From a virus (taxonomy: Duplodnaviria; Heunggongvirae; Uroviricota; Caudoviricetes), in the IMG/VR virus record IMGVR_UViG_3300045988_181891: DNA of 44,845 bases, one strand, 5' to 3'. Below are positions 1,174-40,118 of this stretch, piece by piece. The translations under genes were made by a program, and so were the position numbers. A model generated the notes under the pieces. The model saw only the letters and a program-made list of their open reading frames with translations, did no database searches and was not told the origin of the DNA. The stretch's first letter is position 1; each line of letters begins with the position of its first letter.

Positions 1174-1181
1174 TACCTTTG
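1174..1181 (+). promoter_or_regulatory. -7 promoter box TAccTTTG for the tRNA gene
   Basis: gtacctttgcac about 30 nt upstream of the tRNA 5' end. Confidence 0.45.
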
Positions 1182-1212
1182 CACTCGCAATTCAGAAATG
1201 AGTTGATTATAT

Positions 1213-1288
1213 CGCGGCGTGGAGCAGTTGGTAGCTCGCCAGGCTCATAACCTGGAGGTCGCATGTTCGAGTCTTGCCGCCGCAACCA
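1213..1288 (+). tRNA. tRNA-Met: tRNA-Met (anticodon CAT), initiator-type
   Basis: 76-nt cloverleaf folded by hand: acceptor CGCGGCG/CGCCGCA with C1-A72 mismatch, U8, D-loop AGTTGGTA, anticodon loop CTCATAA, T-loop TTCGAGT, encoded CCA; near-identical in layout to E. coli tRNA-fMet. Confidence 0.85.
1270..1286 (+). repeat. attL core, 17-bp direct repeat AGTCTTGCCGCCGCAAC within the tRNA 3' end
   Basis: Identical 17-mer at 44538..44554; imperfect similarity continues for about 55 bp downstream of both copies (atcgggta..aacattct..atccgatt). Confidence 0.8.
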
Positions 1289-1404
1289 ATATCGGGTAAG
1301 AAGTTGGAAACAACATTCTTATCCGATTTTCCGTTTTGGGGAGGGACGGAAGCGAAATACTTTATTGTTGAATATCATTGGCTGGCAACGGACAATGAAA
1401 AAAA

Positions 1405-2568
1405 ATGACTGCAAAAGAAATTGATTTTTTGAGCTCGCGTGAAATAGTAGGTTTCACGCTGCCTGTGTTGCATACCAAGGGCGGTTACTGGTATGTTGAC
1501 TTTACTGCCTTTGACCCTGTTTCGGGTCGGATGAAGCGCAAGAAATATATGCTTAATAGGTACAAGACTGACCACAAGAAGCGTATGATGGGTACCTTGC
1601 TTATCCACAATATCACGGCAAAATTGACCGCTGGATGGAATCCTTGGGTGAATGCCGACAAGTCGAGACAATTCACCGAAATACCAATTATCTTTAGTCG
1701 TTATCGTGATTATATTAAGTCGATGACCGACAAAAAGTCGATGAAGGAAAAGACCTCTATCGACTACCTCAGCCGCCTCAAGACTCTGGAGTCTTTCATC
1801 ACTGAGTGCAAGAGTGTCAAATATGCCTATCAGATTGACCGTGCCTTCGCCATCGACTTCTTAGACCACCTGATGTATGACCGTGATGTGAGTGCTACCA
1901 CAAGAAACAACTATCGCTCTTGGCTTGTCTCCTTCGGCACTTGGCTTATGGATAGAAAATATATCAGCGAGAACCCTGCCATCGACATCAGAAACATCGC
2001 TCAGAAGGAGAAGTTCAGAGACCCTTTGACCGAGGGCGCGCTTAAGAAGCTGAAGACTTATCTCTATGATAACAACAGACATTTTCTCTTGGCTTGCCTC
2101 TTTGAATATTATACCTTTATCCGACCGAATGAGTTGACGCAGATAAGAATCAAAGATGTGTCGATTGCTGACCAGACGGTCTTTATCAGTTCTGCCATCA
2201 GCAAGAACCGTAAGGACGGACTTGTGGCATTGAACGATGAAATCTTGAAGCTCATGATAGAGCAGAAGATATTTGAGCATCCGGGACATTGTTTTATCTT
2301 TGGCAAGGGGTTGAAGCCTGGTGAGGAGCGAGCACCTTATAACCAACTGAGAGTAGAGTGGGGCAAGATGCGAGATGCTATTGGGTTTCCGAAGGAGTAT
2401 CAGTTTTATAGCCTGAAGGACACTGGCATCAGGGATTTGGCGAACGCACAGGGTATCGTGGTCGCCAAGGATCAGGCACGCCACTCTGATATATCTGTGA
2501 CGAATCGATATATCAAGAACCAGATGAAAGTGAACGAGGAGACCAAGCACTTCAAAGGTGGGCTTTAG
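1405..2568 (+). CDS. int: Tyrosine recombinase (phage integrase), Bacteroidota-type with N-terminal arm-binding domain
   Basis: ATG at 1405; C-terminal catalytic region HxxR...Y (ARHSDISVTNRYI); position directly beside the tRNA attachment site. Confidence 0.9.
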   Translation: MTAKEIDFLSSREIVGFTLPVLHTKGGYWYVDFTAFDPVSGRMKRKKYMLNRYKTDHKKRMMGTLLIHNITAKLTAGWNPWVNADKSRQFTEIPIIFSRYRDYIKSMTDKKSMKEKTSIDYLSRLKTLESFITECKSVKYAYQIDRAFAIDFLDHLMYDRDVSATTRNNYRSWLVSFGTWLMDRKYISENPAIDIRNIAQKEKFRDPLTEGALKKLKTYLYDNNRHFLLACLFEYYTFIRPNELTQIRIKDVSIADQTVFISSAISKNRKDGLVALNDEILKLMIEQKIFEHPGHCFIFGKGLKPGEERAPYNQLRVEWGKMRDAIGFPKEYQFYSLKDTGIRDLANAQGIVVAKDQARHSDISVTNRYIKNQMKVNEETKHFKGGL

Positions 2569-7500: not shown

Positions 7501-8904
7501 TTTTTCTCCGAGTTCGATGGTGAGGTCTTGGAATCGCTTCTTGGCTTTGTCTAGTTCTGCCTGTACCGTTGTATTCTGGGTATTGAACTCATTGATGACA
7601 CTGGTACCGTCGGCATACGACTTGGTGGCGATGTCTTGCGCCTCTTTCACTTGGTCGAGGTGTGTAGCCACGGCGGAGAGAACGCCCACGGCACGGGTGC
7701 CGTTAAGCTGCATCTCCTCAAACATCGGTGCCATCTCGGCGAAACCTCCCTTTGACTTCATCGCTTGCATGAACTTCATCAAGCCCTCATTGGCGTTGGT
7801 CTTCATCAGGTTGGAGAACTCCTTGACCTGCATGCCCGCTATCTTGGCGAACTTGGCTGGCTCTTGGTACATCTTGGTGATGAGCTGTGAGAAGACGGTG
7901 GCGGAAGTCGCCTCCTCTTGCATGTTTTGGTCGAGGGCAGAGGCGAGACCCATCAGCTGTGCCTGGGTCATGCCGGCCTGGATGCCGACACCTGAGAGGT
8001 CGGCGGTGAAATCGACGATGTAGCCAGCGTTTGCAGATGAGCTTTGTGCCAGCTCATTGACGGCGGAACCTGTGGCGAGCATCGCACCACGAAGGCCTTT
8101 GGTCTTATCCTCACCAAACATCTGGGCGAGCTTGCCGATTTTATCGACCGCCCCCTTGCCGAGGTCATCGCCGAGGGTGACATTGATTTTGTCGGCACCA
8201 TCAACGAACTCCTCGATCATCTCTTTGCTGGTGATGCCGAGGCGACCGGCAGAGCCAGCCAGCTCGTTGAGCTGCTCACGAGCTGTGCGGGTATCCATGC
8301 GCTTGAAGTCCTCGTTCATCTGATGAACCTGTTCGTCGGTCTGACCGGTGTATTTGCGCACGTCTGCCATCGACTCCTCCATGTCGGCATAGGCTTGGGC
8401 TGCAGCTCTCAAAGTAAGAGTGAGTGTGGTGAGACTGCCCAGTATCTGGGTGAAGGCACCCCAGTTTTTGTTAAGACCATCCCACATTCTAGAGAACAAA
8501 CTTCTGGAAGCTTTACCTTCGTCGTTGATGTGCTGCATCTCTGCTCGCACTTGCTTTAATTGCTTTTGCAGTTTTTTCCATTCGTCTGAGTTGCGCTTGA
8601 TGGCACCGCTTTTCAACTCTCTGTTGAGAGCCTTGGCGACTAGTTGCAGCTCCTTGTATGATGCAGAAGAAAGATTGTTGAGAACTTGGTTAACCTTCTC
8701 TTGGCTAGTCATGTATGCTTTTGTCTCAGCCTTTAATCTCTTTATCTGTCGTTCGAGGGCTGTTGTTGACTCGCCCTTTGCATAAGCCTCGTCTCTGGCT
8801 TTTTGCACTTCTTTCAGCTTGTTTTGCAATTCGTTGAGTTTATCCTTAGCCTCTTTGGTGTCAAGAATAACTCTGCTAACATGGGTATCTGTATTTGTTG
8901 CCAT
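4558..8904 (-). CDS. Tail tape measure protein
   Basis: 1448 aa; N-terminal TMP-type domain (NELAGSAGRLGITSKEMIEEF...), central hydrophobic helices, long charged coiled-coil regions; own promoter box upstream. Confidence 0.9.
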   Translation of the reverse strand: MATNTDTHVSRVILDTKEAKDKLNELQNKLKEVQKARDEAYAKGESTTALERQIKRLKAETKAYMTSQEKVNQVLNNLSSASYKELQLVAKALNRELKSGAIKRNSDEWKKLQKQLKQVRAEMQHINDEGKASRSLFSRMWDGLNKNWGAFTQILGSLTTLTLTLRAAAQAYADMEESMADVRKYTGQTDEQVHQMNEDFKRMDTRTAREQLNELAGSAGRLGITSKEMIEEFVDGADKINVTLGDDLGKGAVDKIGKLAQMFGEDKTKGLRGAMLATGSAVNELAQSSSANAGYIVDFTADLSGVGIQAGMTQAQLMGLASALDQNMQEEATSATVFSQLITKMYQEPAKFAKIAGMQVKEFSNLMKTNANEGLMKFMQAMKSKGGFAEMAPMFEEMQLNGTRAVGVLSAVATHLDQVKEAQDIATKSYADGTSVINEFNTQNTTVQAELDKAKKRFQDLTIELGEKLIPAMKYGITSFSLTIKVMSTLITFTVTYAKQIAVLSTAIAVCTALWYKETIAIKIKTAAVQYASAVDKAYTATSTLLRAALVALQATWAYLTKGIQGYIVVMRAARLASLTNPWAALATVITVVGVAAYGAYKAITSYNEAMRNNTQEAKNNRAVAEAQASLAKKVSDATLDERNKVDMLNKVIHSNAYTVDERKQAIANMIKLVPEYHASISKEGKLYNDNQIAIQNYIKELENAAMAEAIYERKVEINKKKLELKQKESRIRYSLKAVDAERKAHPKQYESNAVADGWTGQLIEQNEALKSNEKQKQVHTQRLQANLSLQKQVNAEENFYNQQLEKNVNLQKQYNKTVKKNLLNNSATTETHTTPSSGHTMTEKERKAAEKEKKKREAAARKAEAKRKADMKKELDDAKKANQAEELDAKTLYATGQIRLAEYNEKMKNIKEQGLQARLDILKKYGEAESEEFKRLNAEKENIAADYEKKQTADLEALETERQKKEMKLNADYYNKDSNLYHNEDAVNEALFLSYQDYLNKKQALYLSSSDEYAQIEKERELTQQQRKYDLQKQHDEQLLQLRQEYGKLGNEEQMQLDLQGLEAIYKAGLIREEEYQRTKMGIANKYASYKPTADEQRKEDANTALDTAKKMTKGNGDSNNAMGSDNLATIAGGAIAAIQQQKMVNDNLKNLRDEDKISEQQYQDAKKQMNKETYQEIASIAGAAFSSINTMMGAASAYSQACSDLEVAKIEKNYDKQISAAGNNSAKKKRLEAKRDKEVAAAKSKANKKAMKIEIAQAIASTAMAAINAYSSAAAIPVVGHILGPIAAGLATAAGMLQIATIKKQHQAEAAGYYEGGFTGPGNYKKEAGVVHAGEFVANHNAVNNPQLLPALQLIDMAQRNNTVASLTAQDVSRAMGTGSAAVVAPVVNVSGGDTEQMGASLDSVHTTIDRLNEQLNAGIKSYVVITGPDGFDRQWSQYQKMKSNK

Positions 8905-8926
8905 AATTGAATATTTTATTTTATGG

Positions 8927-8934
8927 CAAAGGTA
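8927..8934 (-). promoter_or_regulatory. -7 promoter box TAccTTTG (minus strand) for the TMP gene
   Basis: Plus strand reads caaaggta; about 23 nt upstream of the ATG at 8904. Confidence 0.45.
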
Positions 8935-8950
8935 ATAAGGAGGAAAACAT

Positions 8951-9367: not shown

Positions 9368-9552
9368 ATAATAATATTTGGAATATGCAAGTATTTTGTG
9401 TTAAATCTTTGATTTGTTTTGCGGTATGGTGGAAAAATATTATATTTGCAGTGGCAATTTAATTTTAGAAAGTATGAATAAAGATTTTGCTTTAATATTG
9501 GTAAACATAATATGCGCCTTAACGGCATTTGTTTGTATGATAATCACTATTG

Positions 9553-9909
9553 TTATTTCATTAGTGAGATTATAATAGTAATACACATAGATGCGATTGT
9601 AATAATCGTGCAAATGATATTGATATATTCTTTGTATTCTTTCAGAAGTGTCAGTCTCTCCTGTCTTCTCTTCTGTTTGTTATAGCCTTTCTTGGCAGCA
9701 TTCTCCCCTTGTGGTGTCAGCTTATAATAAGCTTCTCCCCACTCATAAACAAGTCCCTCGTCTTGAAGTGATTGTAGAACATCGTATGGCTCAATGTCAT
9801 ATCCATACGTATCATTTATAGCACTGTGTACATCGTCTTTGTTAGGACTACCTTCTAAGAACTGGCTTAAAATGAAATCTGCGATTTCTATTTGCTTTTT
9901 AGTCATCAT
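9553..9909 (-). CDS. Hypothetical protein with C-terminal transmembrane helix
   Basis: Start chosen at the tandem ATG (MMTKKQIE...); the ORF-track start at 9993 is GTG; promoter box upstream. Confidence 0.45.
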   Translation of the reverse strand: MMTKKQIEIADFILSQFLEGSPNKDDVHSAINDTYGYDIEPYDVLQSLQDEGLVYEWGEAYYKLTPQGENAAKKGYNKQKRRQERLTLLKEYKEYINIICTIITIASMCITIIISLMK

Positions 9910-10044
9910 AATCAAATAAAAACGGCTCGTGCATCGGGAGGGCAGTCCTTCAGCACGAGCCATTAACAGCTGTATATCTTTATGTCTTGCCACTCATGAG
10001 ACCTGCCCGAATCATGTTTGACATCATTGTCTTTAAATATGGTG

Positions 10045-10052
10045 CAAAGATA
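10045..10052 (-). promoter_or_regulatory. -7 promoter box TAtcTTTG (minus strand)
   Basis: Plus strand reads caaagata. Confidence 0.4.
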
Positions 10053-10092
10053 GCGCTTTTATCTGAATGCACCAAATGATTTTACGAAAACT

Positions 10093-10704
10093 TTATTTCA
10101 CCACCTCTATGTATCTCGAGTAATCAATCTTGGAGTGGGGATTGTGGCTGACTATCTGCACCTGATAGCCCTTGGTGCCCCATCGCCACCAGAGGAACTT
10201 GTGGCGGTAGGTGCGGCTCACGATGGTCGTCAGGCTGTCTCGAGACGAGTACTGGCACTCTCGCTTGGGGATGTCGATATGGAGGGAGAGCCATTGGTCT
10301 CGGTAGGTGTAGATGGAATCGGGGATGCCGGAACCAGCCACGGCGGCGGTCGGTTCGGGCGTGAGATAGACCGTATCGGCGGTGGTTGACGAAACTGTGT
10401 GGATAGACTGCACATCTTTGAGCCGCACTTTGAGGTCTTTGATGAGCTTGGTATCGGCGAGGTGGAGCTTTTGCAGCTCGTCGTATTTCGACTGAAGGGC
10501 GTTGAATATGGCGACATTGAGAGTGTCTCTCACGTTGGCATATTCAATGTCGTAGTTGAGGTTGGCTACGTTGTAGCTCTGTCGGTCGAGGTCTGCCTGA
10601 AGCTGCTCGCACTTGTTGGCGGAGTGTATGAATGCGACTGCGGTCACGATGAGCAGGGCTGCCAGAAGCTGGATGATAATCTTGGGTGTAATCTTTTTTG
10701 TCAT
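10093..10704 (-). CDS. Membrane-anchored coiled-coil protein, spanin-like lysis accessory candidate
   Basis: ATG at 10704 (MTKKITPKIIIQLLAALLIVTAVAF...); N-terminal TM helix then coiled coil; directly follows the amidase gene. Confidence 0.45.
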   Translation of the reverse strand: MTKKITPKIIIQLLAALLIVTAVAFIHSANKCEQLQADLDRQSYNVANLNYDIEYANVRDTLNVAIFNALQSKYDELQKLHLADTKLIKDLKVRLKDVQSIHTVSSTTADTVYLTPEPTAAVAGSGIPDSIYTYRDQWLSLHIDIPKRECQYSSRDSLTTIVSRTYRHKFLWWRWGTKGYQVQIVSHNPHSKIDYSRYIEVVK

Positions 10705-11914: not shown

Positions 11915-13558
11915 TCACGTGAATTTATAGAACTTCTTTTTGAATTTATTGTGAAGCTCTGCGACCACGGTGGAGAAGGGTAGCTCATCACGACAGAAGT
12001 CGTTGAGGGCTTGGTCTATCAAGATCTTGGAGCCTGTATAGAGGTAGTGCTCCAGAGGTTGCCATACCTCGGTGCCGTCTGGCTCCAGGTGGTCGATGAT
12101 GCGATAGCGTAGGGAGAGGCGCTTCTTGGGCACCTCTTTGGTGACCATGTGGGTGGAGCCGTCCGGGGCGGTCTCCTCTTGCTGGATGGTCTCCTTCTCT
12201 ATCACCGAGTCATCGACCTTGTAGTCTATCACTTGAACGAGGAACTTGTTCTCGTCCTGACCCTCACGGCAGATGATGTCCTCGATGGACTGCTGCTGTG
12301 ATTTCTCCATACCGTCAAAAGGCACGCGCGCACGGCGAGCCTTGACGAGTTTACCGAATCTTTCCATACCGATTTTCTTATATAAGTTTTTAGAGTTTGC
12401 GTGGATGCCCAGACCTAGGCGAGAGGCTGCCTTGAGCTGTATCTGGCGGTCTGTGAAGCCCGCCTTGCGTAAGTTGGCGATCTGTCTGCAGAGGTCGTGC
12501 TTGAACCGCTTGCGCAACAGGGCGTGGTCGGCGTAGATGATCTGACCGCATAAGTCGATGCCATCGCAGGTGCGGTGGATACCCCAAGACTTATTGATGG
12601 ATAGGTGCCAGTCACGGGCGAGGTGCATCACGGCAAGCTCTGCCATCAGCCTGAGGAACACCTTATCCTCGTGGAGGATGTAGATGTTGTCCATGAAGCG
12701 GTAATAATGGCGAAGACCTTGGCGGCAGAAGCGCTCGAACCTATCGTTGAGCGACTTCACTCCCCCGCATAGCAGTTGAGCTTGCTGCTGAGTGCGACAG
12801 GTAACGAGCATGTCGCTCACGTAGCGAGCCTGCCAGTAACGGAACTTGTCGGTGTCTTGGAGAATGTCGAAGCATCGGAGTGCCAGGTAATCGAAGCGGG
12901 CGAGGAAGAGCTGACCCAAGAGTTGGGCGAGCTTGACGCCGAGCACGATGCCTGGATTGAAGCTATCGACCACCTCGTCGATGAAGGCGAGGAGCTTGCG
13001 GTCTTTGATCTTGCGGCGATATTCACTTTTGAGAAGAGCGTGGTCTATGCTCTGAAAATAATGGTGAATATCCATGGGCAAGCAGTAGAAGGTATCTTGC
13101 TGTGGCGAGTTGAAGATGTCTCGCTTGACAAGATTATAGAAATAATGGGTGCCCTTGCCCTTGGAACCAGCCGGACTGTGGCTGTAGAGTGTCTTGCGAA
13201 GGTTATCCTCTACAGGTTGCAGGGCAGCGTGCTGGATGACGTGGTCGATAACGGGCAGCTTGTTGACTTGGCGATGTTTTGGATAGTCGATATCTTTGGC
13301 GACATAGGCTGAGGTATGCCAAGTTTGTTGGGTGTAAGCATCGAGCATGCGTCCGATGTTATGGTCTAGGTTTGCCTCGAATTTTTGGACCGCACGGCGA
13401 GACATCTTTTGTCGGGCGTAGTCATAGAATGCCCGACGAAAGTTGTCTAGTGTCTCGACCTGTAGCGATATGTTGCCAAACCTTTTCATAAGCGGTGTAA
13501 TGTCTGTGTTGAACGGTGTATAAACTGTGTATAGTCTGAATCGTCTGCTTTTGTACAC
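11915..13558 (-). CDS. DGR reverse transcriptase-like protein with non-canonical motif C
   Basis: RT motifs recognised by eye: HVIQHAALQPV, SPAGSKGKGTHY, LPMDIHHYFQSIDH, GVKLAQLLGQLFL; sits just downstream of the template repeat; ORF-track start 13558 is GTG, first in-frame ATG is at 13489. Confidence 0.8.
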   Translation of the reverse strand: MYKSRRFRLYTVYTPFNTDITPLMKRFGNISLQVETLDNFRRAFYDYARQKMSRRAVQKFEANLDHNIGRMLDAYTQQTWHTSAYVAKDIDYPKHRQVNKLPVIDHVIQHAALQPVEDNLRKTLYSHSPAGSKGKGTHYFYNLVKRDIFNSPQQDTFYCLPMDIHHYFQSIDHALLKSEYRRKIKDRKLLAFIDEVVDSFNPGIVLGVKLAQLLGQLFLARFDYLALRCFDILQDTDKFRYWQARYVSDMLVTCRTQQQAQLLCGGVKSLNDRFERFCRQGLRHYYRFMDNIYILHEDKVFLRLMAELAVMHLARDWHLSINKSWGIHRTCDGIDLCGQIIYADHALLRKRFKHDLCRQIANLRKAGFTDRQIQLKAASRLGLGIHANSKNLYKKIGMERFGKLVKARRARVPFDGMEKSQQQSIEDIICREGQDENKFLVQVIDYKVDDSVIEKETIQQEETAPDGSTHMVTKEVPKKRLSLRYRIIDHLEPDGTEVWQPLEHYLYTGSKILIDQALNDFCRDELPFSTVVAELHNKFKKKFYKFT

Positions 13559-13697
13559 TTGATAACCTTCGACCGGATGACCGTGTTGTCATCATCTACC
13601 AGCTGTCTTATTAATGTGTATGTATCGCCATGGGGCGAGGATTGACCCTGTAATCTCGAAGTGGGAGCAAACGACCCACGAAGAGATATGTCTGTAA

Positions 13698-16323: not shown

Positions 16324-17166
16324 TTATACTTTAATGACTAACTTGTTTCTGCGCTTGACAACGTGTTCAGCGACATGACTGCCGTAGTCGATCATGAGGA
16401 GTTTGTTGCGCCGTTGACGGAACGCCGGATACATGGCACCGCCTCGGGCGATGACTCCTGTATCGACATAGGTGTGCTTGGAGAGATCCCACTGCCACCA
16501 GTTGCCGTTGTCGCCCATCTTGGGTGGATGGTCGTTGAGCTCCTGGGCTAGGTTGGTCTGCTTCTCGCTCTCGGTGAGGGCTGTGAGCGTATCATCGATG
16601 CGCTTGTTCTCGGCGGTGACACGACCCGCCTCGGCGGCTATGCGAGCATTTTCGGCTGTCGCTCGCTTGATCTCTGAATCCATGCGAGCTTGCTCTTGGG
16701 ACTGTCGGGTCTGCTCGGCAGCTTGTCTCTTGGCCTCGTTGCTCTCAATGGCAGCCTTGGAAGAGAGCGTGGCTTCGGTCGCCTGTTTGGCAGCCTCGGT
16801 CTGCGACTTGCTGGCACTGACCGCATCCTCTACCTTTTTGCGTTCGGCGGTGAAGTCAGTTGTCGCCTTGTTGACGCTAGCCGCCGCATCGTTGGCTTTG
16901 CCAGCTGCGGTGTTGGCCTCCTCTGTCGCCTGTTTCGCCTCCTCGATGCGGATATCCACATCTTTAGTCAAGAGTGACAGCGGTGCGATGACTTGCTTTT
17001 GCACACCGTCTTTGCTGTAGAGGGCGGGCATCGTACTGATGCCATCGAGCGAGGTGGCGAGCTCGCAAGAGAAGATGTTCTTGCTGTGCCGCTGTAGATA
17101 TTCGTTGAACTTAGGTAAGAGCCGGGCGCATAGCGCCTCGAACTCTGTGTCATTCTCTATGCCCAT
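16324..17166 (-). CDS. Hypothetical structural protein with central coiled coil
   Basis: ATG at 17166; 280 aa. Confidence 0.55.
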   Translation of the reverse strand: MGIENDTEFEALCARLLPKFNEYLQRHSKNIFSCELATSLDGISTMPALYSKDGVQKQVIAPLSLLTKDVDIRIEEAKQATEEANTAAGKANDAAASVNKATTDFTAERKKVEDAVSASKSQTEAAKQATEATLSSKAAIESNEAKRQAAEQTRQSQEQARMDSEIKRATAENARIAAEAGRVTAENKRIDDTLTALTESEKQTNLAQELNDHPPKMGDNGNWWQWDLSKHTYVDTGVIARGGAMYPAFRQRRNKLLMIDYGSHVAEHVVKRRNKLVIKV

Positions 17167-17468: not shown

Positions 17469-17771
17469 TTAATCTTGCTCTATTAGTTTAACAATCTGAC
17501 AATATACCCCTGGCACCAAGGAAGCCTTGGCGACCTCTTTGATCATGGTTAAGTCTTCGGTCGTACACTCGACCTCACTTGGTTTAGTGTGCATCTGCAC
17601 ACTCAGGTTGTAGGCTCTCTTAAGAGACTCATCATCAGCCTTGACGCTGTTATTGCTTCCGTTGAACAGATGAAGTCCGAGCACCTCATTCATCATCTGA
17701 GGCTGTCCGTTGCTGTCTGTCATCACCCCGCCCCTGTAGTTACGGATGGCGACCTTAAAATTTCTTTTCAT
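17469..17771 (-). CDS. Hypothetical small protein
   Basis: ATG at 17771. Confidence 0.5.
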   Translation of the reverse strand: MKRNFKVAIRNYRGGVMTDSNGQPQMMNEVLGLHLFNGSNNSVKADDESLKRAYNLSVQMHTKPSEVECTTEDLTMIKEVAKASLVPGVYCQIVKLIEQD

Positions 17772-17789
17772 ATCTGTCTAAGTTTAAAA

Positions 17790-20700
17790 TTAATATGCGT
17801 GGTTCAGCTTGCGCGCTGTGTATTTGGTCGTGTAGTCACTCACCTTGTTGCCCATGGTTGAGTTATAGACCAGCAGGAACGTCGCACTGTCGCCCTGTCC
17901 CATCTCTATGTAATCTTTGTTGCCGCAGTTCTCATCGAGAATCAAAGGTAACTCCTCTTTGTTCCATGCGTAGGAATCGCTTTTGTCTTTGATCTTGTTG
18001 CGCCCATAAATGAAGAAGTTTGTCGTGCCTGGCTCAGCGACCACCGTAAATGTCACGGCGAAGTTGGTAGATGAGCCACAGCCTAATGCGCTGCGCACCT
18101 CAGACAGTGTTGGCAGCGTTATGCCGCTTGACGAGACGTAGCTGTAGATGAGCCAGACGTTATTCTCAGAAATCTTGGCATAGCCATTATAGATGGTGTT
18201 TTTTGTGCTAAGCGCATATCTGCTATACTTATATCCACCTATCCATCCATTGAGTACGCCATTGCCAGCACCTGTGAAAGCAAAATTATAGGCACCGTTT
18301 TTAGCCGAGAGTATGGCTGCGATATTGTAACCAAGCCCCCACCAGTCGCTGCTGTCCTCATTTTCGAATCGAGCCACCGCACGCTGTCCTGATGCCGCTG
18401 GTAGTACGTTGCCACCGATGCCCGCAAAGCATTTATGGGTATCGTTGCGAAATATGATGTATGCATCATTGGTAAATGGGTCGTTTGTCAGACCCGTGCC
18501 CTGGATAGTGAATCCAGCGATCTTGCCCGCCAATGCCTCCATGGAGCCATCTTTGTTGATTTTGAAATTGCTGTTGGCCGTGACCACACCGTTAAGGTTG
18601 ATTTGGTCTGCCGTGATGGTGGCAGAGGAGATGCCGTTGGCAATCATTGTCTTGATGGTAGCCTCGGATAGAATCTTGCCATCGACACCCTCGATTTTTG
18701 TAGTCAGCGCATTGTAGTCTGCCGTCACAAGCAAGCCACCTTTGTTTTTGAGCGTGCCATCGGCATTGAATCGCTCGCTCATCAGGGCGTTGTAGTCAGC
18801 GGTGGTGATAAGATAGCTCGTATCTTTGAGCTTGCCATTGGCATCGAAACGAGCAACTGCCGAAGACCACGAATCGGCGTTTTGACTGACCAACGATATA
18901 GTCGGACCATAATCGTTGCGTATGTCTGAGCCTACGCTGTCGGCGTGTCTCCTGGCTTCGGCAACGGAACTGTTGAGGGCATTGTAGTTGTCAGACATAG
19001 TCCCTTGCAAAGTGTTTTTGGCTGCATTCAGCTCGTCTTTTGTCGCAGCCTTGCCCACCGTGGTATTGATGCCATTGACCGTTATCTTTAACTCAGCGAG
19101 TGCCGCCTTGGTGCCGTTGGCAGTATTGGTGACGCTCTCGACACGTGCAGTGATGCTGTCGATGTCGGTGTAGATGCCAGAAATTTTCTCGTTTGTGCTA
19201 TCCTGCCAGGTGTTGATGAGGTCGATGCGACCTGCCTCTATCTCTATTCTTGACGAGAGTGTTGTGTTGAGTTCGCCGTATCTCTTATCGACATATAGGC
19301 GTATTGCCTCTTTCTCAGCGTCCAGCTCGATGCCGAGCTGAGTTGTGGTACCATTGACCTTGTCGATGTTTTGTCCCAGCAGCTTGATGTTTTTGGCCGT
19401 CTGAAGTATTTGTGTCGAGACGGTCTTGCTCAGGTTGTCGAGCGGCTCGTCGGTGATGGTGAGCAGCGCGACGTAGATGTCTCCTGTATATCGGAGCACG
19501 AAGTCGCCGGTGCCATTCCACTTGCCATTTAGCTCTACCGTCTGCCACTCTGCCGAGTATGGCACGCTGACGCTCTGGGCTGACAGGTCGTTGGTCTTGC
19601 CTTCGACAGCCTTGCAACCCTCGAAGCCAAAGGTGAGGGTGCCAGCAGTCTTGGCGTAGATGCGAGCACTTATATATAAGGTGTCTTGCACCTCGGTGTA
19701 GTCATCGCCAGTGGTGTTCATGCCATCCTCGCCTTTTTCTGCCGATGGCTGGGTATATTCCTTGTGGGTACCGGGTTTGCGGATGAGATCATTGGCTTGT
19801 TTGATGCCGCTGTCCTGTATGTGCAGCATGTTGCGACCCTCGTTGTTGTCGATGCTCACTCGGTGGTTGCCACTCACGGTGGCGGCACCATTGACCATGA
19901 CAGGTAAGCCATTGGCATCGACCCAGAACTGGGACTCGTCTGTATCGTCGATGGTCCAGCCATCAATGAGCTGCTCATCGTTATAGCCTATCGCCGTCAG
20001 AAACTGACCGTTATGGAGGTAGTTGTTCTCCTCTGTCGCCTCGTAGGAGGTCTGTGCGAAGCGGGTGGCGAACTGGTTCTGCAGCATCTGTATTTTGGTG
20101 TCGATGCTCTCACCTGTGCGGCGGAGCACGAAGTCGCCCGTGGCGTAGAGGTTCTGCAGGAACTCACCGAAGCCTGATAGTGCACCGAAGAGTGGATGGG
20201 TGATGCCCCGTAAGTTGCCGAGGCGACCTTTGAGCGCATTGTCTGGGTCTGTCTTGAGACCATAGATGATGTCCATGTAGGGCGTATCGCTGCCCACAGT
20301 CATCATCTGTATGATGCCCTTGCGGTCGGGGTCGGTGAGGTTGTCGACCCTAACAAAAGTGTCTCGCTTGGTGATGAGCTGCTCTGCGGTGGCACCCTCC
20401 ATCGATGAGGTGAAGTTCTTGAACTTGACCCATGCTAGCATATCCTCGCCACTGCCCTCGCTGCCCACCTCTGTCACGATAAGCTCGTATCGCTTGGTGA
20501 CATAGTGATTGTTTTCGGTGGAGGGCATGCCATTGTACTGCTGCACCATCACGTAGTCATCCTTGCGGAATGGGTTGTACATCCTGCCCTCGTGGGTGTC
20601 GAGATAGACCCTGCCTGTCTCTGGATCGTAGTGGTCAACCTCTAGCATCGCCGTGAAGATGCGGTTGTCATTCTCGCCCAAGAGTTGGGAGATAATCATC

Positions 20701-27380: not shown

Positions 27381-27742
27381 GCTACGACTCCTCCCATCAG
27401 ATAACCACCAAAGAAAACCACTGCCATGAAGGCTGCGAAGCCTAGTGTGGCCTTGACCACCTCGCCGTAGGTCACGCTCTCGTCGCAGAGTGCGGTGAAG
27501 GTCTCGCTCTCGGTCTTGGCGAGCTTCTTGATTTCACACTTGAGGGTATTGATACCCTCCTCTACGCTGATGCCTGCAGGTCTCACCTGCGCATCACTAA
27601 TTAAAATTGAATTCTGCATAATTGCCATCTTATAACCATTATAGACCGATCTTGATGTATAAATACAATGGTGGCGGTCACATTCACCGTTGGTTATAAG
27701 ATGGTAGCTTTCCCAGCGAAGGTCAAGTATCTTACGGATCAT
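27377..27742 (-). CDS. Hypothetical protein with C-terminal transmembrane helix; start uncertain (27742 or 27628)
   Basis: Both candidate starts are ATG; a 10-bp inverted repeat sits at the internal start. Confidence 0.45.
   Translation of the reverse strand: MIRKILDLRWESYHLITNGECDRHHCIYTSRSVYNGYKMAIMQNSILISDAQVRPAGISVEEGINTLKCEIKKLAKTESETFTALCDESVTYGEVVKATLGFAAFMAVVFFGGYLMGGVVA
27629..27700. repeat. 10-bp perfect inverted repeat CTTATAACCA / TGGTTATAAG separated by 52 bp
   Basis: 27629..27638 and 27691..27700; a third copy CTTATAACC at 27868..27876 abuts the promoter box at 27882. Confidence 0.45.
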
Positions 27743-27881
27743 GCAACCGCCATATTGAAAAGACCTTTTTCCCGCTGCCGGGAAAATGATACTTTATAGG
27801 CATAAAAAAAGCCCACGGCGTGAAGCCTAGGCGAAACAGTCGCCATCGCTGAGTAGATTACTACTATCTTATAACCGATGG

Positions 27882-27889
27882 CAAAAGTA
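27882..27889 (-). promoter_or_regulatory. -7 promoter box TActTTTG (minus strand)
   Basis: Plus strand reads caaaagta. Confidence 0.35.
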
Positions 27890-29309: not shown

Positions 29310-29317
29310 CAAAGATA
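29310..29317 (-). promoter_or_regulatory. -7 promoter box TAtcTTTG (minus strand) for the three-gene accessory cassette
   Basis: Plus strand reads caaagata. Confidence 0.45.
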
Positions 29318-29439: not shown

Positions 29440-29488
29440 CGCAGGCGAAAATTTTTGGAAAATGAGGGGGAAGGTTTTAGCCTTCCCC
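29440..29488 (-). terminator. Terminator-like hairpin downstream of the RadC gene
   Basis: 8-bp stem GGGGAAGG / CCTTCCCC with 6-nt loop (29467..29488), followed on the minus strand by a T-rich tract; a second small hairpin lies at about 29436..29451. Confidence 0.35.
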
Positions 29489-29507: not shown

Positions 29508-30191
29508 TTATAGCTTTCCTTTGTCGTGGTAGCTGTAGAAGCCATCCTCAGCCAAGATGATATGGTCCATCAAGAAAAGTCTCATCACCTCGCACGCCTT
29601 GGCTATCTTCTGCGTGAGCATATCGTCCGCCTTGCTCGGCTGCGTGCTGTTCGATGGGTGGTTGTGTGCCACGGCGATGATGGTTGCATTGTTGAGCACG
29701 GCTTCTTTCATTATCAGTCGAACGTCCACCGCTGTCTCGGTGATGCCTCCCTCGCTGAGCTTGGTGCACTTTATCAGCCTAAAGTTTTGGTTCATCAGCA
29801 CTACCCAAAAGCCCTCTGTCTCATTGCAGCCTATCATTGGGCGAAGATAGTTGTAGAGTGCCAGGCTGCTGCCTAGGTCGGTGTTTCTCGCTACCTTTTC
29901 CATTTGGTAGCGTCTGCCTAGCTCGATGGCTGCCTGTAGGGCTATCGCCTTGCAGTCTCCAATTCCTGGTACCACTTCCAGGTCTTCTATTCTCGCCTTG
30001 CCGATGTTGCGAAGCGAGTTGCCCATGATGTTATAAATCTGTCGTGCCTGCTCTTGGCTGTCCTTGGTACCTGCCCCTCTGTTGATTACCAAAGAAATCA
30101 AGTCAACGTTGGTAAGGGTGTCGAAACCTTGGTTATAGGCTCTGTACTGCGGTCTCTCCTCCATACAAAGATTGTTATAATTTTGTCTCAT
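29508..30191 (-). CDS. radC: RadC-like JAB/MPN domain protein
   Basis: Signature AHNHPSNSTQPSKADDMLTQ (HNHPSG..PS..D motif) and N-terminal helix-hairpin-helix segment VPGIGDCKAIALQAAIELGRR. Confidence 0.75.
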   Translation of the reverse strand: MRQNYNNLCMEERPQYRAYNQGFDTLTNVDLISLVINRGAGTKDSQEQARQIYNIMGNSLRNIGKARIEDLEVVPGIGDCKAIALQAAIELGRRYQMEKVARNTDLGSSLALYNYLRPMIGCNETEGFWVVLMNQNFRLIKCTKLSEGGITETAVDVRLIMKEAVLNNATIIAVAHNHPSNSTQPSKADDMLTQKIAKACEVMRLFLMDHIILAEDGFYSYHDKGKL

Positions 30192-30206: not shown

Positions 30207-30731
30207 TTAGTTATACATTCTCTTTGTTCTCGCTAGGAACATCGCTCCCATCACTTGTGCGCCACATTCGGCTAGCTCGTTGGCGAACTCTCGGGCGGTC
30301 GCTCCGCTCGTCACCACGTCGTCGAAGATGATGACTTTCTTTCCGCTGAAGTACTCTCTATCGAGTGCCACTCTGTAGTCGAAGCTCTCACACACTCTGT
30401 CTGTGCTGAAGTGCTTGGCTGTGCGCTCTCCATAGATGGAAATGTGCTCGTTTCCGTTCTGTACCTTTGCGCCTTGGCTCACCTTTTGGGCGAAGCGAGA
30501 AAAGCGCTTGGTGTACTTCTTTGAGTTGGCTGCTGGAGCGCAAACCATCACGAAGTCGCTGGCTTTGTCGCCATAGGTGTTGACGAAAGAGCTGACCACC
30601 ATATCGGCAGCTGCGTCTGTCGCCCACTGCTTTCCATCCTTGAAGGCAAAGATGAAGTTTCTCACTTGCTCTGCTTGTGCTGAGCGGTCGAAACGCTTGG
30701 AGCTGTACTCGTAATAATTGAAAGTTTTCAT
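30207..30731 (-). CDS. Phosphoribosyltransferase-domain protein (ComF-like PRTase)
   Basis: PRPP-binding motif KKVIIFDDVVTSGATAREFANEL near the C-terminus; ATG at 30731. Confidence 0.6.
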   Translation of the reverse strand: MKTFNYYEYSSKRFDRSAQAEQVRNFIFAFKDGKQWATDAAADMVVSSFVNTYGDKASDFVMVCAPAANSKKYTKRFSRFAQKVSQGAKVQNGNEHISIYGERTAKHFSTDRVCESFDYRVALDREYFSGKKVIIFDDVVTSGATAREFANELAECGAQVMGAMFLARTKRMYN

Positions 30732-30779
30732 ACGCTTAAAATTTTTATTCTAGCCAGAGGGAGGAAGGAGCTTTTTTAT

Positions 30780-31629
30780 TTGAACTCGTCTTTGCCTGCC
30801 CGTCTGAGAGTTTTTTTTATTCTGTCCGTCGGTCGTTTTTGTCGCTTTTTACGGTGCGATGCAGACGAGCGGAGAAGAGGTATGAAAGCCAAGGAATTTT
30901 GCAAAAAGTTTATGGAAAACCGTCATCTCTGATTGCGGAAGGCTGCCGAAAAGTTTTTGGAAAATAGATTTATCGGTACTTGGTGCATGCCGTCCGCCGT
31001 ACCTTTGCACCCGAAAAAGAGATAATGACCGATGGATAACCGATAAAGGGAAAAGCTCTCGGACAGGAAAAGCGGGCAAAGAAAAGGCTCTGCCTTACCT
31101 TGGTGGTTAAGCCTTAGCGACGTTTGAGCGCCATCACGGTCACTACCGCTTGAAAATTCGCAAATTTTAACCATAGCGTATGAAATGAAAGATGGAAAAT
31201 TTGCGTCATCAAAAACACCATGTTTTTCAGACTTTAGGAGGAAAAACATACCTTGGAGCGATGAAATCGCAGCATTTGGCATGCTTCGACCCCGAGGTTG
31301 AAGATGCCGAATGTGTCGTTTTGCGACAGGTTTTCCACACCCACGGATTGGAAAACCCCGATTTTATCGTGGTTTTAGGGATTCAAAGGGAAAATAATTC
31401 CCCTTTGTCGGCGATAGCACCCCCCACCGCCCTACGCCCGAGCGCGCCTTCCGCCCCCTTGGAAAAGACGGAATATGTAAAAGACCGTTAACGTTTTTGT
31501 AGGAATGTAAAAAGCCAAAAGGCACGAAAAAAGGGAACACGCTTCGCAGCGCACTCCCCTTATCGGCGGTCAAGCAAGAATGCCAGCCACCTAACTTATA
31601 TAAGAATCGTACTATCTAAAGAAATCAAA
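30780..31629. other. 850-bp ORF-poor region between the terminase and accessory genes; candidate non-coding RNA or packaging-related cis element
   Basis: No convincing ORF on either strand; plus-strand promoter box at 31000; C-rich tract around 31420..31465; a 7-bp stem hairpin around 31390..31415. Confidence 0.3.
31000..31007 (+). promoter_or_regulatory. Plus-strand -7 promoter box TAccTTTG inside an otherwise minus-strand region
   Basis: The 12-mer GTACCTTTGCAC is identical to the one in the host tRNA promoter (1173..1184). Confidence 0.35.
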
Positions 31630-33231
31630 CTATAGCATGGAACCCGTGGCGATGTAGCCATCAGCCTGAGGGTATTTCTCCATGCCAATCATGAGCGTGT
31701 CGTAGGCATCGGAGCCATCGGTGCGAGCCTCCAACTTATCCTCCTCGGTCTCAGCCAGCTTCTCGCCTCGCTTATCCTTCTTGCCGTTGTAGACCCCGGC
31801 CAGGCGGATGGAGATGAGCAGGTCTTCGTTGTTCTCGCTGTTGATCATCGAGCGATGCTCAGCCTTGCCGAGGAACATGCGGTTGAGCAGAAGCATCTTT
31901 TCGAGATGTCCCATCGGGTTGCCCAGATAGACCTCGTTGACATACCAGCCATGGTCGGTGAGGTAGTCGGTGATGAAGGTATGGAAGTCATCGTTCATCA
32001 GGGCGTAGTTGTTGCCCACGAAGGTGGAGTCGTAGTAGAAGTTGACCTCTTTGCACCGATGGTACTCATAGTACTGCATGAACTTGTCGAGCAGGGCTGG
32101 CAGCTTCTCCTCATACTTCACGAAGATGCTCTTGAGGCAGCGTGCCTCGCCCCGCAGGTTGTCTTGTCCGACGGCTATCCAGTTGATGAGGGCGTTGGCA
32201 TCGAAGGCGATGCAGAGCGGACGGTCGGGGTCAACGTCGGCATCCATTCTGGAATCTACATGCTTGAGCTTGTCGATGTCGTAGCCCAAGCCATCGAGGT
32301 AGGCGAGGTTGGGCGCCGTGTATAGGTTGGCATCCCTGAGGTTGGAGTAGAAGCCATCGAGCGAGATGGAAGGTCGCTTGCACATGATGGAGGTCTGGAA
32401 GGTGAGGGCAGGGAGGTCTCGCTTCATCTGCTTGATGAACTCCATGCCGAGCACCTCGATGTTATAGACCGATGAGTACTCTTTATAGAAGAGTGCCTTG
32501 GAGCGCAGTTGCGCCAGGAGCTGACCAATCTCTCGGAGTCGGCGCTGGGCATAGCCTGAGACATGGCCCGAGGTCTTGATGCGGTTGCGTATGTCATACT
32601 CCTCTACCACGAGCGAGGCGATGGCGTCGATGAGCAGCTGGTCGCAGTCTTTCTTGTAGTTGAGGAACCAGGAGCCCTTCTTGGTCACGGGCATATCAGA
32701 GGTGATGAGCATGCCATGGTGGTAGTAGTGCTGGCCGAAGAGGTTGACGTTGCCTCGATTGGCAGGGAAGGTCTCGTCTTTGAGCTGTTCGAAGTTGATG
32801 AACTTCGCCTCGTCGATGTCGAGGTAGTCGAGCGAGAGGGAGTTGGAGGTACCCTTGCGGTCTTGCGAGATGATGGTACCGATGGAGCCGTTATAGAAAG
32901 AGATGGTGTTCTCCCAGTTGCTGGGCGGTATGACCGGGTCGGGCCATCCCAGTTTTTTGGGAGGCTTGACCCCGATGAGATAATGCTTGCCCCGGTGGAA
33001 GCCCCATCGCTCCCAGTGCTGAAGCATCGACGGTATGGTGTTGGTGAGGCATCGCTTGGTGTTGGCGGATACGAAGCCGCCGTTGCTGCCAGGCATGCGC
33101 TGCATGTTGCGCAGGTTGAAGGTGGCGTGGAGAATGCTCTTGCCGATGCCTCGACCGCCCACGACCACGTTGTCGCGGGCGGAGATGAGGTTGACCTCCA
33201 TCTGGGCTGGGTTGAGATATTGATCTATCAT
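31630..33231 (-). CDS. Terminase large subunit
   Basis: Walker A VVGGRGIGKS, Walker B-like LDYLDIDEA, C-terminal acidic nuclease-type region; start/stop overlap with the upstream small gene. Confidence 0.8.
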   Translation of the reverse strand: MIDQYLNPAQMEVNLISARDNVVVGGRGIGKSILHATFNLRNMQRMPGSNGGFVSANTKRCLTNTIPSMLQHWERWGFHRGKHYLIGVKPPKKLGWPDPVIPPSNWENTISFYNGSIGTIISQDRKGTSNSLSLDYLDIDEAKFINFEQLKDETFPANRGNVNLFGQHYYHHGMLITSDMPVTKKGSWFLNYKKDCDQLLIDAIASLVVEEYDIRNRIKTSGHVSGYAQRRLREIGQLLAQLRSKALFYKEYSSVYNIEVLGMEFIKQMKRDLPALTFQTSIMCKRPSISLDGFYSNLRDANLYTAPNLAYLDGLGYDIDKLKHVDSRMDADVDPDRPLCIAFDANALINWIAVGQDNLRGEARCLKSIFVKYEEKLPALLDKFMQYYEYHRCKEVNFYYDSTFVGNNYALMNDDFHTFITDYLTDHGWYVNEVYLGNPMGHLEKMLLLNRMFLGKAEHRSMINSENNEDLLISIRLAGVYNGKKDKRGEKLAETEEDKLEARTDGSDAYDTLMIGMEKYPQADGYIATGSML

Positions 33232-33857
33232 AGTGCTTTGTCCTCCTTGACTTCTTCTGTAGGTGTATATTCCAAGAGCTGTTCGTCGTAGTCCTCGGCC
33301 TCGATCTTGACGAGATCCATGGAGTTGTCGGTGTATTTCTTGACGAGCTTCTTGATGGTCTGCATCACGTTAGGGATGCGCTTGAGACCCAAGTGTCGTG
33401 GGTCGGTGGTAGGGATGAAGACCTGAGGCTGAATCTGGTCGTAGCCGTTGTCGGTAGGATCCTCTTTGTCGAGCAGGTGATATTTGCCGTATGCAGCTGC
33501 GGCGGCAGCCATGGCTCGGGCATCGCCCATGGAGTCGGCCTTGTCGTAGGTGCGCTGTATCATCTGGTCGAAGCGATAGCGGGCGAAGTCTTTTGACACT
33601 TTTTGCAGGTTGCCCAATATGAGCTTGATGAGGTGCAGGTCGTTGTAAGCCATCATGCGCTGCACCTTGTAGTCGTGCATATCTTTATAGACCAGCTCTT
33701 GGTCGCTCTTGCGAGGGTTGATGAGCCACCAGGCATAGAGGGCACGGATGCGCAAAATGCGGTCGCGCACTGGGGCGGGCACATTTTGCGCATCCATCTC
33801 TTCGGGTGTGCGGTCCATCAGTTCGATGATGGCATCGATGTTGGCGGGTTCTCTCAT
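33228..33857 (-). CDS. Putative terminase small subunit (by position)
   Basis: 209-aa gene whose stop overlaps the TerL start (ATGA); no diagnostic motif. Confidence 0.4.
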   Translation of the reverse strand: MREPANIDAIIELMDRTPEEMDAQNVPAPVRDRILRIRALYAWWLINPRKSDQELVYKDMHDYKVQRMMAYNDLHLIKLILGNLQKVSKDFARYRFDQMIQRTYDKADSMGDARAMAAAAAAYGKYHLLDKEDPTDNGYDQIQPQVFIPTTDPRHLGLKRIPNVMQTIKKLVKKYTDNSMDLVKIEAEDYDEQLLEYTPTEEVKEDKAL

Positions 33858-39364: not shown

Positions 39365-39384
39365 ATAGCTATGCAATTTTCGTG

Positions 39385-39392
39385 CAAAGATA
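39385..39392 (-). promoter_or_regulatory. -7 promoter box TAtcTTTG (minus strand)
   Basis: Plus strand reads caaagata. Confidence 0.45.
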
Positions 39393-39504
39393 CAAAGAAA
39401 ATTTGAAATAACTAACGATAATCGGTAAAAACTAACTTTTATCAGTAAATTTGGTGTGATATAATTTCGTCCGAAAAGTTTGTATTTTTGTATCGTACAA
39501 ACAA

Positions 39505-39760
39505 GGCTCTGTAACTAGCTGATAATCAATACTATTTTTGTGATACAATTTTCTGATACAGAAATTGTAACTCTTTAGCTTTTGTAACTTGGGGTTTTGT
39601 CGAGGTCGAAGACCTGTAGGAGAAGGGGCTTGTTACAAACTTGAAAAACTTTGTAACCGAGTTGTAACGCAACTTTGTAAACATCGGCATGGCGGCTTAA
39701 CTCACTCTTTTTTAGTTATTTACCTCTTTTGCTAACATTATGTTACAGAGTTACAAAGGA
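39505..39760. repeat. Iteron-like array of TTGTAAC heptamers (candidate replication origin)
   Basis: Direct copies at 39565, 39582, 39651 and 39662, variant TTGTAAA at 39676, inverted copies GTTACA(A) at 39632, 39742 and 39750; AT-rich, non-coding, beside the primase gene. Confidence 0.5.
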
Positions 39761-39902
39761 TTTGTATAAAATAAAAGAAAGGGGTGTGGGGAAAACGATG
39801 GCACGGGGCGTGAAGGAGGTTAGAAAAGGCCCATCGAGACACCCAGGACACCCCCATTGGCCAATGGAGGGGTAGCGAGACGAAACATCGCCCATGGCAA
39901 CG

Positions 39903-39937
39903 AAAAAAGGGAGCGACGGCCAATGCGCATCGCTCCC
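39903..39937 (-). terminator. Rho-independent terminator (minus strand) after the primase gene
   Basis: 8-bp stem GGGAGCGA / TCGCTCCC with 13-nt loop, followed on the minus strand by TTTTTT. Confidence 0.5.
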
Positions 39938-40069
39938 TCGTAACATGGGAAAAGAATTATAAATCAGCAAAAATCTGCCTATGAAATCAGCCCTCGTCTG
40001 CTTGCAAAAATAGTGAAAAATTGCTTGAAAATTTAGCCGAAAATATTTGCATAATTCAGATATTTTTTG

Positions 40070-40077
40070 TACCTTTG
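40070..40077 (+). promoter_or_regulatory. Plus-strand -7 promoter box TAccTTTG pointing antisense into the primase gene 3' end
   Basis: GTACCTTTGCAC 12-mer identical to the tRNA promoter; TTTG at the expected -33 spacing (40046..40049). Confidence 0.3.
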
Positions 40078-40118
40078 CACTATAACTTGGGGCTATCTAT
40101 TCTATTATATATGGATGG

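Follow-up and report, generated by a model that had tools for sequence, protein, structure and literature searches.

What occupies the gene-free interval that separates a terminase-like gene from a two-gene cassette in a Segatella copri tailed prophage? The interval lies at 30732..31629 of a 44,845-nt viral record (IMG/VR IMGVR_UViG_3300045988_181891; this whole stretch is called the window below). It is bordered by a gene for a TerL-like protein on one side and, on the other, by genes for a ShosT/ComF-like phosphoribosyltransferase (PRTase) and a RadC-like JAB protein. An earlier note, made from the sequence alone, had treated the interval as a single feature. Comparison with related phages resolves it into a terminator and two separable conserved modules and indicates that it is functional non-coding DNA. 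The module next to the PRTase gene is a long imperfect palindrome (30768..31094). We put at about even the chance that this palindrome works as a hairpin promoter, active in single-stranded DNA, which would control the mobile PRTase-RadC cassette and represent a Bacteroidales counterpart of the Frpo promoter.

The interval is kept in more than 100 related phage loci and holds no conserved open reading frame (ORF). Of 72 IMG/VR relatives, many keep the whole ~870 nt (77-100% identity), and the TerL-proximal ~450 nt are also retained in relatives that have no PRTase gene. Compensatory changes emerged when conservation and covariance were followed across relatives, as the earlier note had advised, and they mark the interval as conserved non-coding DNA.

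The palindrome was recognized from a repeat search that returned nested inverted repeats with one common centre. A first reading of the region as two short arms around a 250-nt loop was replaced once these nested repeats and the full-length rod fold had been obtained. Folded as single-stranded DNA, the plus strand forms a single predicted rod of 110 pairs, 12 of them G:T, at -62.3 kcal/mol (z -5.41; none of 100 shuffles folds as well). The minus strand reaches -42.4 kcal/mol (z -1.54). A single hairpin axis accounts for 85-95% of the predicted pairs in 26 diverse representatives with PRTase identities of 37-100%. Arm sequences are unalignable between lineage types and complementary within each.

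Because the PRTase gene is on the minus strand, the better-folding plus strand is its template. This preference extends beyond the window: the PRTase template strand folds more stably in 91 of 97 unique loci, with a mean gain of 9.6 kcal/mol. Among the 26 representatives, the mean z-score from mononucleotide shuffles is -7.7 for the template strand versus -5.5 for its complement, and the template is the better folder in 22. A register-neutral count, in which one arm is aligned to the reverse complement of the other and mismatches are scored equally, gives 163 G:T versus 103 A:C (naive binomial p=3e-4; sign test over representatives 18:6).

Pairing is also maintained as the sequence changes. 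Across 61 long-range pairs in 28 close relatives, 99.5% of positions are paired, versus 97.3% in shuffles, a level that 0 of 500 shuffles reach; shifting the partner by 1-3 columns lowers the pairing to 40-52%. Double changes occupy 45 cells, versus 13.8 in shuffles, and five pairs carry them.

The two arms differ in their promoter elements. The Bacteroides promoter consensus consists of a -33 TTG and a -7 TAnnTTTG, and a promoter of this type lies in the 3' arm (Table 1), with a predicted duplex start at ~31013-31016, heading away from the PRTase gene. The earlier note had pointed to its plus-strand -7 box. Taken alone that box is not significant, since the window holds 53 TAnnTTTG boxes versus 20 expected, but the promoter proves genuine in relatives, where the -33 and -7 elements are kept around a variable spacer. 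The strict -33/-7 pattern occurs in 74 of 107 unique loci, always on the strand that does not encode PRTase, and in 0 of 107 on the PRTase strand. The same layout of an opposite-strand -33 TTG and TAnnTTTG, again with an unconserved spacer, is found upstream of PRTase homologs with as little as 37-52% identity.

Inverted repeats flanking a promoter that faces away from a gene are a common arrangement in Bacteroidales and could denote an inverton in its OFF orientation, with PRTase-RadC varying in phase. We regard this as very improbable, and indeed effectively excluded, on four grounds. No locus among the 107 has a promoter facing the gene, and the flipped junction has 0 matches in viral and in metagenome contigs, whereas the native control has 22 in viral contigs. 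Complementarity spans all 330 nt with conserved bulges, rather than two short arms, and the cassette is without a recombinase.

The PRTase-side arm carries a broken counterpart of the -7 box. When each arm is written in its own 5'-3' direction and the two are aligned, the arms of the 26 representatives prove homologous at the -33 and start regions, and the PRTase-side -7 is defective in every lineage. As a consequence, the good -7 box sits in a mismatch bubble of the predicted hairpin. Its positions 1-3 have mean pairing probabilities of 0.30-0.46, versus ~0.9 in the flanks, and the least paired position is the 'A' of TA. Opposite the duplex start site, the PRTase-side arm holds a further conserved block, GTAAAAAGCG, which is kept in all element types and in which the PRTase mRNA would be predicted to begin were the hairpin promoter active.

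We propose that these features make up a switch. In duplex DNA, the sole consensus promoter would fire away from the cassette and the PRTase side would offer only a broken -7, so that the cassette is expected to be silent or nearly so. When single-stranded, the plus strand would fold on itself into the ~110-bp rod, in which the good -33/-7 arm would face the template arm, with the -7 box in the conserved bubble. A promoter on the 3' arm that reads towards the hairpin base has the 5' arm, and then the plus strand into PRTase, as its template. RNA polymerase would thus read down the 5' arm, past the base of the hairpin and into PRTase-RadC, making sense mRNA that would start near 30850 with a leader of about 120 nt. 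Formation and transcription of such a hairpin in vivo would tie PRTase-RadC to the single-stranded state. Conjugative entry would supply single-stranded DNA in plasmids. In a tailed phage it might come from replication intermediates or supercoil-driven extrusion, or the phage might have inherited a module adapted to plasmids.

The main alternative is regulation in duplex DNA, which we consider unlikely, if less so than the other competing accounts. On this account, a non-coding RNA would start at the plus-strand promoter (~31014), run into the TerL-proximal conserved block (module A below) and be antisense to the last part of the TerL-like gene, and its role would be to control either the cassette or the packaging genes. 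PRTase itself would depend on a promoter in its own arm that is weak or needs an activator. The palindrome would have arisen as an inverted duplication that has since diverged, its halves being kept alike by gene conversion or by a need for the RNA to resemble the PRTase leader (mimicry or decoy). The promoter's consensus sequence and conservation fit such a role. So do the hairpin and T-run found ~190 nt downstream on the same strand in L116-type loci, the same-sense sequence that outward RNA and PRTase leader would share, and the TTTG retained in some PRTase-side boxes. Left unexplained are the better folding of the template strand, the gene-side -7 that is broken in every lineage, and the near-identical copies before three unrelated operons of the plasmid pMMCAT, described below. 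Moreover, the DNA into which the outward promoter reads shows no conservation from one cassette context to another, and the inverted repeat provides no RNA complementarity to an mRNA that starts within the palindrome. Of the antisense or small RNA suggested in the earlier note, a possible outward duplex transcript thus remains, but the geometry better fits a hairpin promoter for PRTase-RadC than a dedicated small RNA gene.

Other RNA-based accounts were rejected. A plus-strand RNA covering both arms was dropped because the PRTase coding sequence has no conserved antisense promoter (antisense -33/-7 in 0 of 97 coding sequences). With the upstream operon also terminated, an RNA explanation of the plus-strand bias lacks a source. 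A type I toxin-antitoxin arrangement of the hok/sok or tisB/istR kind fails because the inverted repeat makes the outward RNA and the leader same-sense; pairing of that type would need an mRNA starting upstream of the element, beyond the terminator.

The hairpin-promoter reading is further connected to PRTase-RadC by inheritance. Comparison of loci with and without these genes indicates that the palindrome is part of a mobile cassette composed of palindrome, PRTase, RadC and terminator. The palindrome and PRTase-RadC are gained or lost jointly. Phages without the cassette join module A straight to the promoter region of the next gene, and the left half of an inverted repeat at the edge of module A (31159..31205) is the junction of the insertion. 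PRTase is followed by RadC in distant phages as well as in 18 or more genome loci, and distant relatives keep the order of a TerL-like gene, a gap of ~800 nt, PRTase and RadC. A PRTase gene begins 64-93 nt after each of the 45 further viral elements whose downstream DNA could be read. The window, like each phage, has a single copy of the palindrome. In two Segatella/Prevotella genomes (L124, L130), an extra ORF of ~85 aa lies between the palindromic element and PRTase.

These relations bear on a further possibility, that the element is a single-strand priming site or lagging-strand origin. Its hairpin promoter would make a primer RNA, and its place beside PRTase would be secondary. Such sites have the same hairpin-with-promoter architecture and strand specificity, and the title of Masai & Arai 1997, as cited in PMC11541004, describes Frpo as serving transcription and priming. 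A site of this kind would not be expected to be gained and lost together with PRTase-RadC, to lie always at a short fixed distance upstream of an operon or to occur in three copies within 13 kb of pMMCAT. The phage moreover encodes a large protein of a type annotated as DnaG-like primase in relatives. We therefore consider a primary role in priming improbable.

The element is found outside phages as well. PRTase homologs (31-33% identity) are encoded on 35 Bacteroidales plasmids, and on the conjugative plasmid pMMCAT (L264, NZ_CP072219.1) the gene after PRTase is annotated as SLOG family (9515-10129), where phages have RadC/JAB. This difference suggests that the ShosT-like enzyme has interchangeable partners. 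ShosA, the partner in ShosTA, is DprA-like, so the PRTase-SLOG pair may be ShosTA-like. Neighbouring genes encode LPD28, an orphan N6-methylase, HU, MazEF, HipA, SSB and PcfK/PcfJ and are co-oriented towards the adjacent tra genes; the tra side includes ArdC-like and second SSB genes.

Before the pMMCAT PRTase gene lies a ~375-nt element of the same architecture, visibly homologous to L122/L127-type elements. It is present in three copies that are 98-100% identical and in one orientation (5479-5852, 8549-8946 and 17652-18026). Within 13 kb, the three precede the LPD28..N6-methylase, PRTase-SLOG and PcfK-PcfJ operons. A PRTase riboswitch or leader was rejected on this basis, since the same element precedes unrelated pMMCAT operons and since the better folder is the template and not the mRNA strand. 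Ahead of the SSB gene, the gap at 16578-16908 also has an outward -7 box, and its template strand folds better (z -5.4 vs -3.7).

This arrangement can be set beside that of the F plasmid, which has two Frpo copies, 92% identical to each other, ahead of operons of its leading region (PMC9849209). Frpo stem-loops rebuild promoter boxes and drive early expression while the incoming DNA is single-stranded; conversion to duplex inactivates them (PMC9849209, PMC11541004). As a control, we folded the region upstream of ssb on the F plasmid, and its template strand forms a ~320-nt rod, close in size to that of the window, with z -7.3. The F plasmid leading-region genes point towards oriT. A broader proposal, to which we give somewhat less than an even chance, is that Bacteroidales plasmids and widespread tailed gut phages use an undescribed class of 'strandedness-switched' promoter. 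Such a promoter would fire outwards in duplex DNA; for it to fire into PRTase-RadC or operons of the SSB region, the template would have to be single-stranded and folded.

Several points weigh against a hairpin promoter. The evidence consists of sequence comparisons and predicted folds, and the structure used in the pairing test was derived from the same, related sequences. Strand bias is strong in the window's clade and moderate elsewhere, and it could come in part from the G+T richness of the plus strand. In the duplex the strong promoter would fire outwards, and the outward product could be the real function; where the PRTase-side box keeps TTTG, it might act as a promoter, either weakly or under special activation. 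As a tailed double-stranded DNA prophage, the window is not known to pass through single-stranded DNA on entry, and PRTase is the only gene to which the element is tied in phages. As for the plasmids, the pMMCAT area is presumed to be a 'leading region', and blastn of 30760-31100 against 72,556 plasmid records, including the F plasmid, gave no match, so that the element has no similarity to known Frpo.

The least probable origin of the interval is a decayed gene or neutral spacer, a possibility that the earlier note had raised and that we regard as effectively excluded. It contains ORFs of 99 aa and 119 aa. The former, 31192..31491(+), had been singled out for a check of coding conservation and does not show it: stops or frameshifts interrupt it in at least 10 relatives (L052, L043, L007, L055, L035, L027, L012, L024, L014 and L017) while the nucleotides remain conserved. 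The latter, 30923..31282(-), is missing or altered in many relatives. Compensatory changes accompany these broken frames, and the motifs are common to unrelated phages and plasmids. The absence of a gene between PRTase and the TerL-like gene is borne out, with short ORFs only and 0 Pfam or PHROG matches; small ORFs in the PRTase leader, judged by eye, are not conserved.

Searches for known elements gave little. Rfam 15 had no covariance-model match over 30600-31800 even at E<=10, and at the gathering threshold it matched only a tRNA and RT-17 in the whole window, both outside the interval, which contains no tRNA or tmRNA gene. A scan of the interval for sigma-70-type promoters and terminators returned nothing above chance, with 0 sigma-70-type sites. 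A similarity search of a phage collection gave one 126-nt match at 75% to an unannotated gut phage contig, and its near mode gave nothing.

Table 1. Features of the interval and of the adjoining genes (positions in the window)
Feature	Position	Strand	Remarks
TATCTTTG box of next gene	29310-29317		own promoter box, beyond the cassette
Terminator-like hairpin GGGGAAGG..CCTTCCCC	29467..29488	-	after RadC; end of cassette
RadC-like JAB protein gene	29508..30191	-	second cassette gene; PF04002 1.2e-35, NF000642 1.1e-51
ShosT/ComF-like PRTase gene, 174 aa, type I	30207..30731	-	first cassette gene; PF00156 4.5e-7
Long imperfect palindrome, ~330 nt	30768..31094	+	5' arm ~30768-30912, loop ~30913-30948, 3' arm ~30949-31094
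Conserved block GTAAAAAGCG	30843..30852	-	opposite the duplex start site
Broken -7 box TACCTCTTC	30874..30882	-	PRTase-side arm; opposes the good -7 in the hairpin, leaving the latter partly unpaired
Bacteroidetes-type promoter, 3' arm	30976..31007	+	-33 GTACTTGG (TTG 30979-30981), -7 TACCTTTG (31000-31007)
Module A, conserved non-coding block	31159..31526	.	occurs with or without the PRTase cassette
Inverted repeat CGCAAATTTT / AAAATTTGCG	31159..31205	.	halves at 31159-31168 and 31196-31205 are near -7 boxes (AAAATTTG), outward-facing, back-to-back
Hairpin CAAAGGG-AAAATAATT-CCCCTTTG	31384..31407	.	immediately before the C-rich motif
C-rich 21-mer CCCCCACCGCCCTACGCCCGA	31421..31441	+	first half of bipartite motif
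CGGAATATGTAAA	31469..31481	+	second half of bipartite motif; 24-30 nt past the 21-mer; invariant in alignment A3
Intrinsic terminator of TerL-like operon	31527..31559	-	hairpin GGGGAGTGCGC..GCGTGTTCCC, then TTTTTT; RNA fold -23.7 kcal/mol
TerL-like gene, 533 aa	31630..33231	-	upstream neighbour of the gap in gene direction; phrog_2 terminase large subunit E=1e-4

The other parts of the interval lie next to the TerL-like gene. The terminator stands ~70 nt past the TerL-like stop codon and is kept in all relatives, with a compensatory T:A -> A:T change at 31543/31548. Module A shows 70-100% identity in 38 unique relatives, with invariant blocks and with several covarying hairpins whose sequence changes while their place stays fixed. 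Consensus folding (alifold) supports both strands alike (-172 vs -183, with 22 vs 23 pairs showing double changes), and this equal support does not distinguish between action as RNA and as DNA. Within the inverted repeat at its cassette-side edge, the pair 31158/31206 covaries through TA, GC, GT and CG.

The C-rich run reported in the earlier note has as its core the 21-mer of a bipartite motif, the most striking part of module A. This 21-mer is invariant, and the hairpin said to accompany the run exists, a few bases away from its first placement at 31390..31415. The bipartite consensus reads CCCCCAC(C/T)GCCCT(A/G)CGCC(C/T)GA followed by 24-30 variable bases and GCGGAATATGTAAA, with a hairpin ahead. 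The most distant relatives (L011, L014 and L026) have a hairpin of other sequence at the same position, and other lineages likewise have one directly before the motif. Exact copies of the 21-mer, with Y/R tolerated at three positions, occur in 72 IMG/VR contigs, some of them from lineages with flanks that do not align to those of the window; the window has one copy, with 0 expected by chance. The CGGAATATGTAAA half likewise recurs in lineages with unrelated flanks, and the bipartite motif as such is present in L315, L318, L349, L342 and L353 among others.

The position of the motif is informative. The 21-mer is always downstream of a TerL-like gene (52-56% identity), and its order relative to PRTase-RadC varies: it precedes these genes in the window and follows them in the L315 type, and the genes are absent in the L318 type. 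The G2 group (L057-L072, 52% TerL identity) has no 21-mer between TerL and the palindrome. In the two checkable full-length contigs (L317 and L353), the contig end is not at the motif. The bipartite motif tracks the TerL-like gene from lineage to lineage and is a possible cos/pac packaging site, as the earlier note had suggested for the interval, or a regulatory site, and the 21-mer would be a candidate for such a role in a common human-gut phage family. An 'end-resection sensor', in which 5'-3' resection from a nearby cos end would expose the hairpin strand, was given up as a general account: it fits the window and does not fit the L315-type order with the motif beyond the cassette.

The window carries almost all of its genes on the minus strand, and its proteins include tape-measure and tail proteins, a ClpP-type prohead protease and a reverse transcriptase. 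A contig of a metagenome-assembled genome (JAJXAL010000006.1) holds an identical PRTase locus. The label of large terminase, applied to the upstream gene in the earlier note, accords with the phrog_2 match and with a PDB profile match, both of them weak. A profile of eight homologs has a terminase ATPase as its top PDB match (E=0.046), with GRGxGK(S) (Walker A) and DE (Walker B) invariant, and the protein has no match in Pfam, NCBIfam or PDB phmmer. TerL is hence a weak assignment. The PRTase has ShosT as its best PADLOC match (1.6e-9, 36 bits), followed by PsyrT (9e-9) and retron PRTase_III-A (2.4e-4); its match to ComF TIGR00201 (1.6e-7) falls under the model cutoff.

Several further features were seen elsewhere in the window. 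An RT-17 RNA (RF03020, 59.9 bits) at 13541..13642(-) adjoins the reverse-transcriptase ORF 11915..13558(-) (phrog_1423, 2e-52) near the tail genes, and the pair is probably a diversity-generating retroelement. A tRNA-Met gene at 1213..1288(+) has a TACCTTTG box before it at 1174 and a 387-aa ORF, 1405..2568(+), after it; 1174..2568 looks like the integration end of the prophage. A 740-nt gap at 39377..40118, ahead of a 994-aa gene, contains TAnnTTTG boxes on either strand, six in all, one being a plus-strand TACCTTTG at 40070, and may be a regulatory switch region. Inverted repeats are also found in 27680..27888 (28 nt, 79% complementarity, 153 nt apart) and at 33746..33795 (21 nt, 86%, 8 nt apart), the latter within a 209-aa gene upstream of the TerL-like gene.

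As described in PMC11541004 and PMC9849209, single-strand promoters are known from a few Frpo/ssi sequences of enterobacterial plasmids, with more candidates proposed from the -35/-10 consensus. Our literature search found no paper linking such promoters to Bacteroidota, and the pMMCAT preprint is silent on them. If the hairpin-promoter reading is true, a palindrome, a one-sided TAnnTTTG, a -7 bubble and a better-folding template together would provide a signature for early or establishment genes in Bacteroidales plasmids, and the PRTase-RadC and PRTase-SLOG pairs would be early-acting genes. A tailed-phage gene set would be wired to sense single-stranded DNA, whether from replication intermediates, supercoil extrusion or nuclease processing, which raises the question of when a tailed phage exposes such DNA. 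For annotators, an 'outward-facing' promoter beside an operon that seems to lack one may be that operon's own promoter. The phage location of the element and the motif of module A are what a specialist would least expect.

Promoter-like hairpins are known from several other systems. The ssoA and ssoU origins of rolling-circle plasmids and the minus-strand origin of filamentous phages are strand-specific hairpins that mimic a promoter and that host RNA polymerase recognizes in single-stranded DNA only. They make short primer RNAs that are uncoupled from any downstream operon, unlike the window element, which is tied to PRTase-RadC, and its pMMCAT copies, which are tied to other operons. The early promoters of phage N4 are 5-7 bp hairpins extruded from supercoiled DNA with SSB and read by the virion RNA polymerase. 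They provide a precedent for hairpin-form promoters activated by topology in a double-stranded DNA phage, whereas the window has a 110-bp rod with host-type -33/-7 elements. Bacteroidales invertons likewise have inverted repeats flanking a TAnnTTTG promoter directed away from the gene under control; the element differs from them in that it pairs along the whole segment, is without a recombinase and was found in no flipped copy.

With the ShosTA toxin-antitoxin defence system (PMC11961720, PMC12961424), the cassette shares a PRTase whose best PADLOC match is ShosT and, on pMMCAT, a partner annotated as SLOG. The window partner is instead RadC/JAB, and the similarity to ShosT is weak (36 bits).

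The closest parallels are to the Frpo/ssi elements of F and ColIb-P9. Like these, the window element is a non-coding element of ~300 nt whose template strand folds into a long imperfect stem-loop containing host promoter elements (PMC9849209, PMC11541004), with the -33 TTG and the -7 TACCTTTG paired to the 5' arm except at the -7 bubble. Both are directly upstream of operons of the establishment or anti-defence type and are predicted to be off or misdirected in the duplex. Frpo occurs in near-identical copies in one plasmid, and so does the homologous element on pMMCAT, with three; the window and each phage have one. The two differ in that there is no sequence similarity and in that the promoter is of the Bacteroidetes -33/-7 type instead of -35/-10. 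The setting differs as well: the element occurs in Bacteroidales, including tailed double-stranded DNA phages, where it always precedes PRTase, and the window is not a conjugative leading region. The window element therefore stands outside the Frpo sequence family and would resemble Frpo/ssi in its mode of action.

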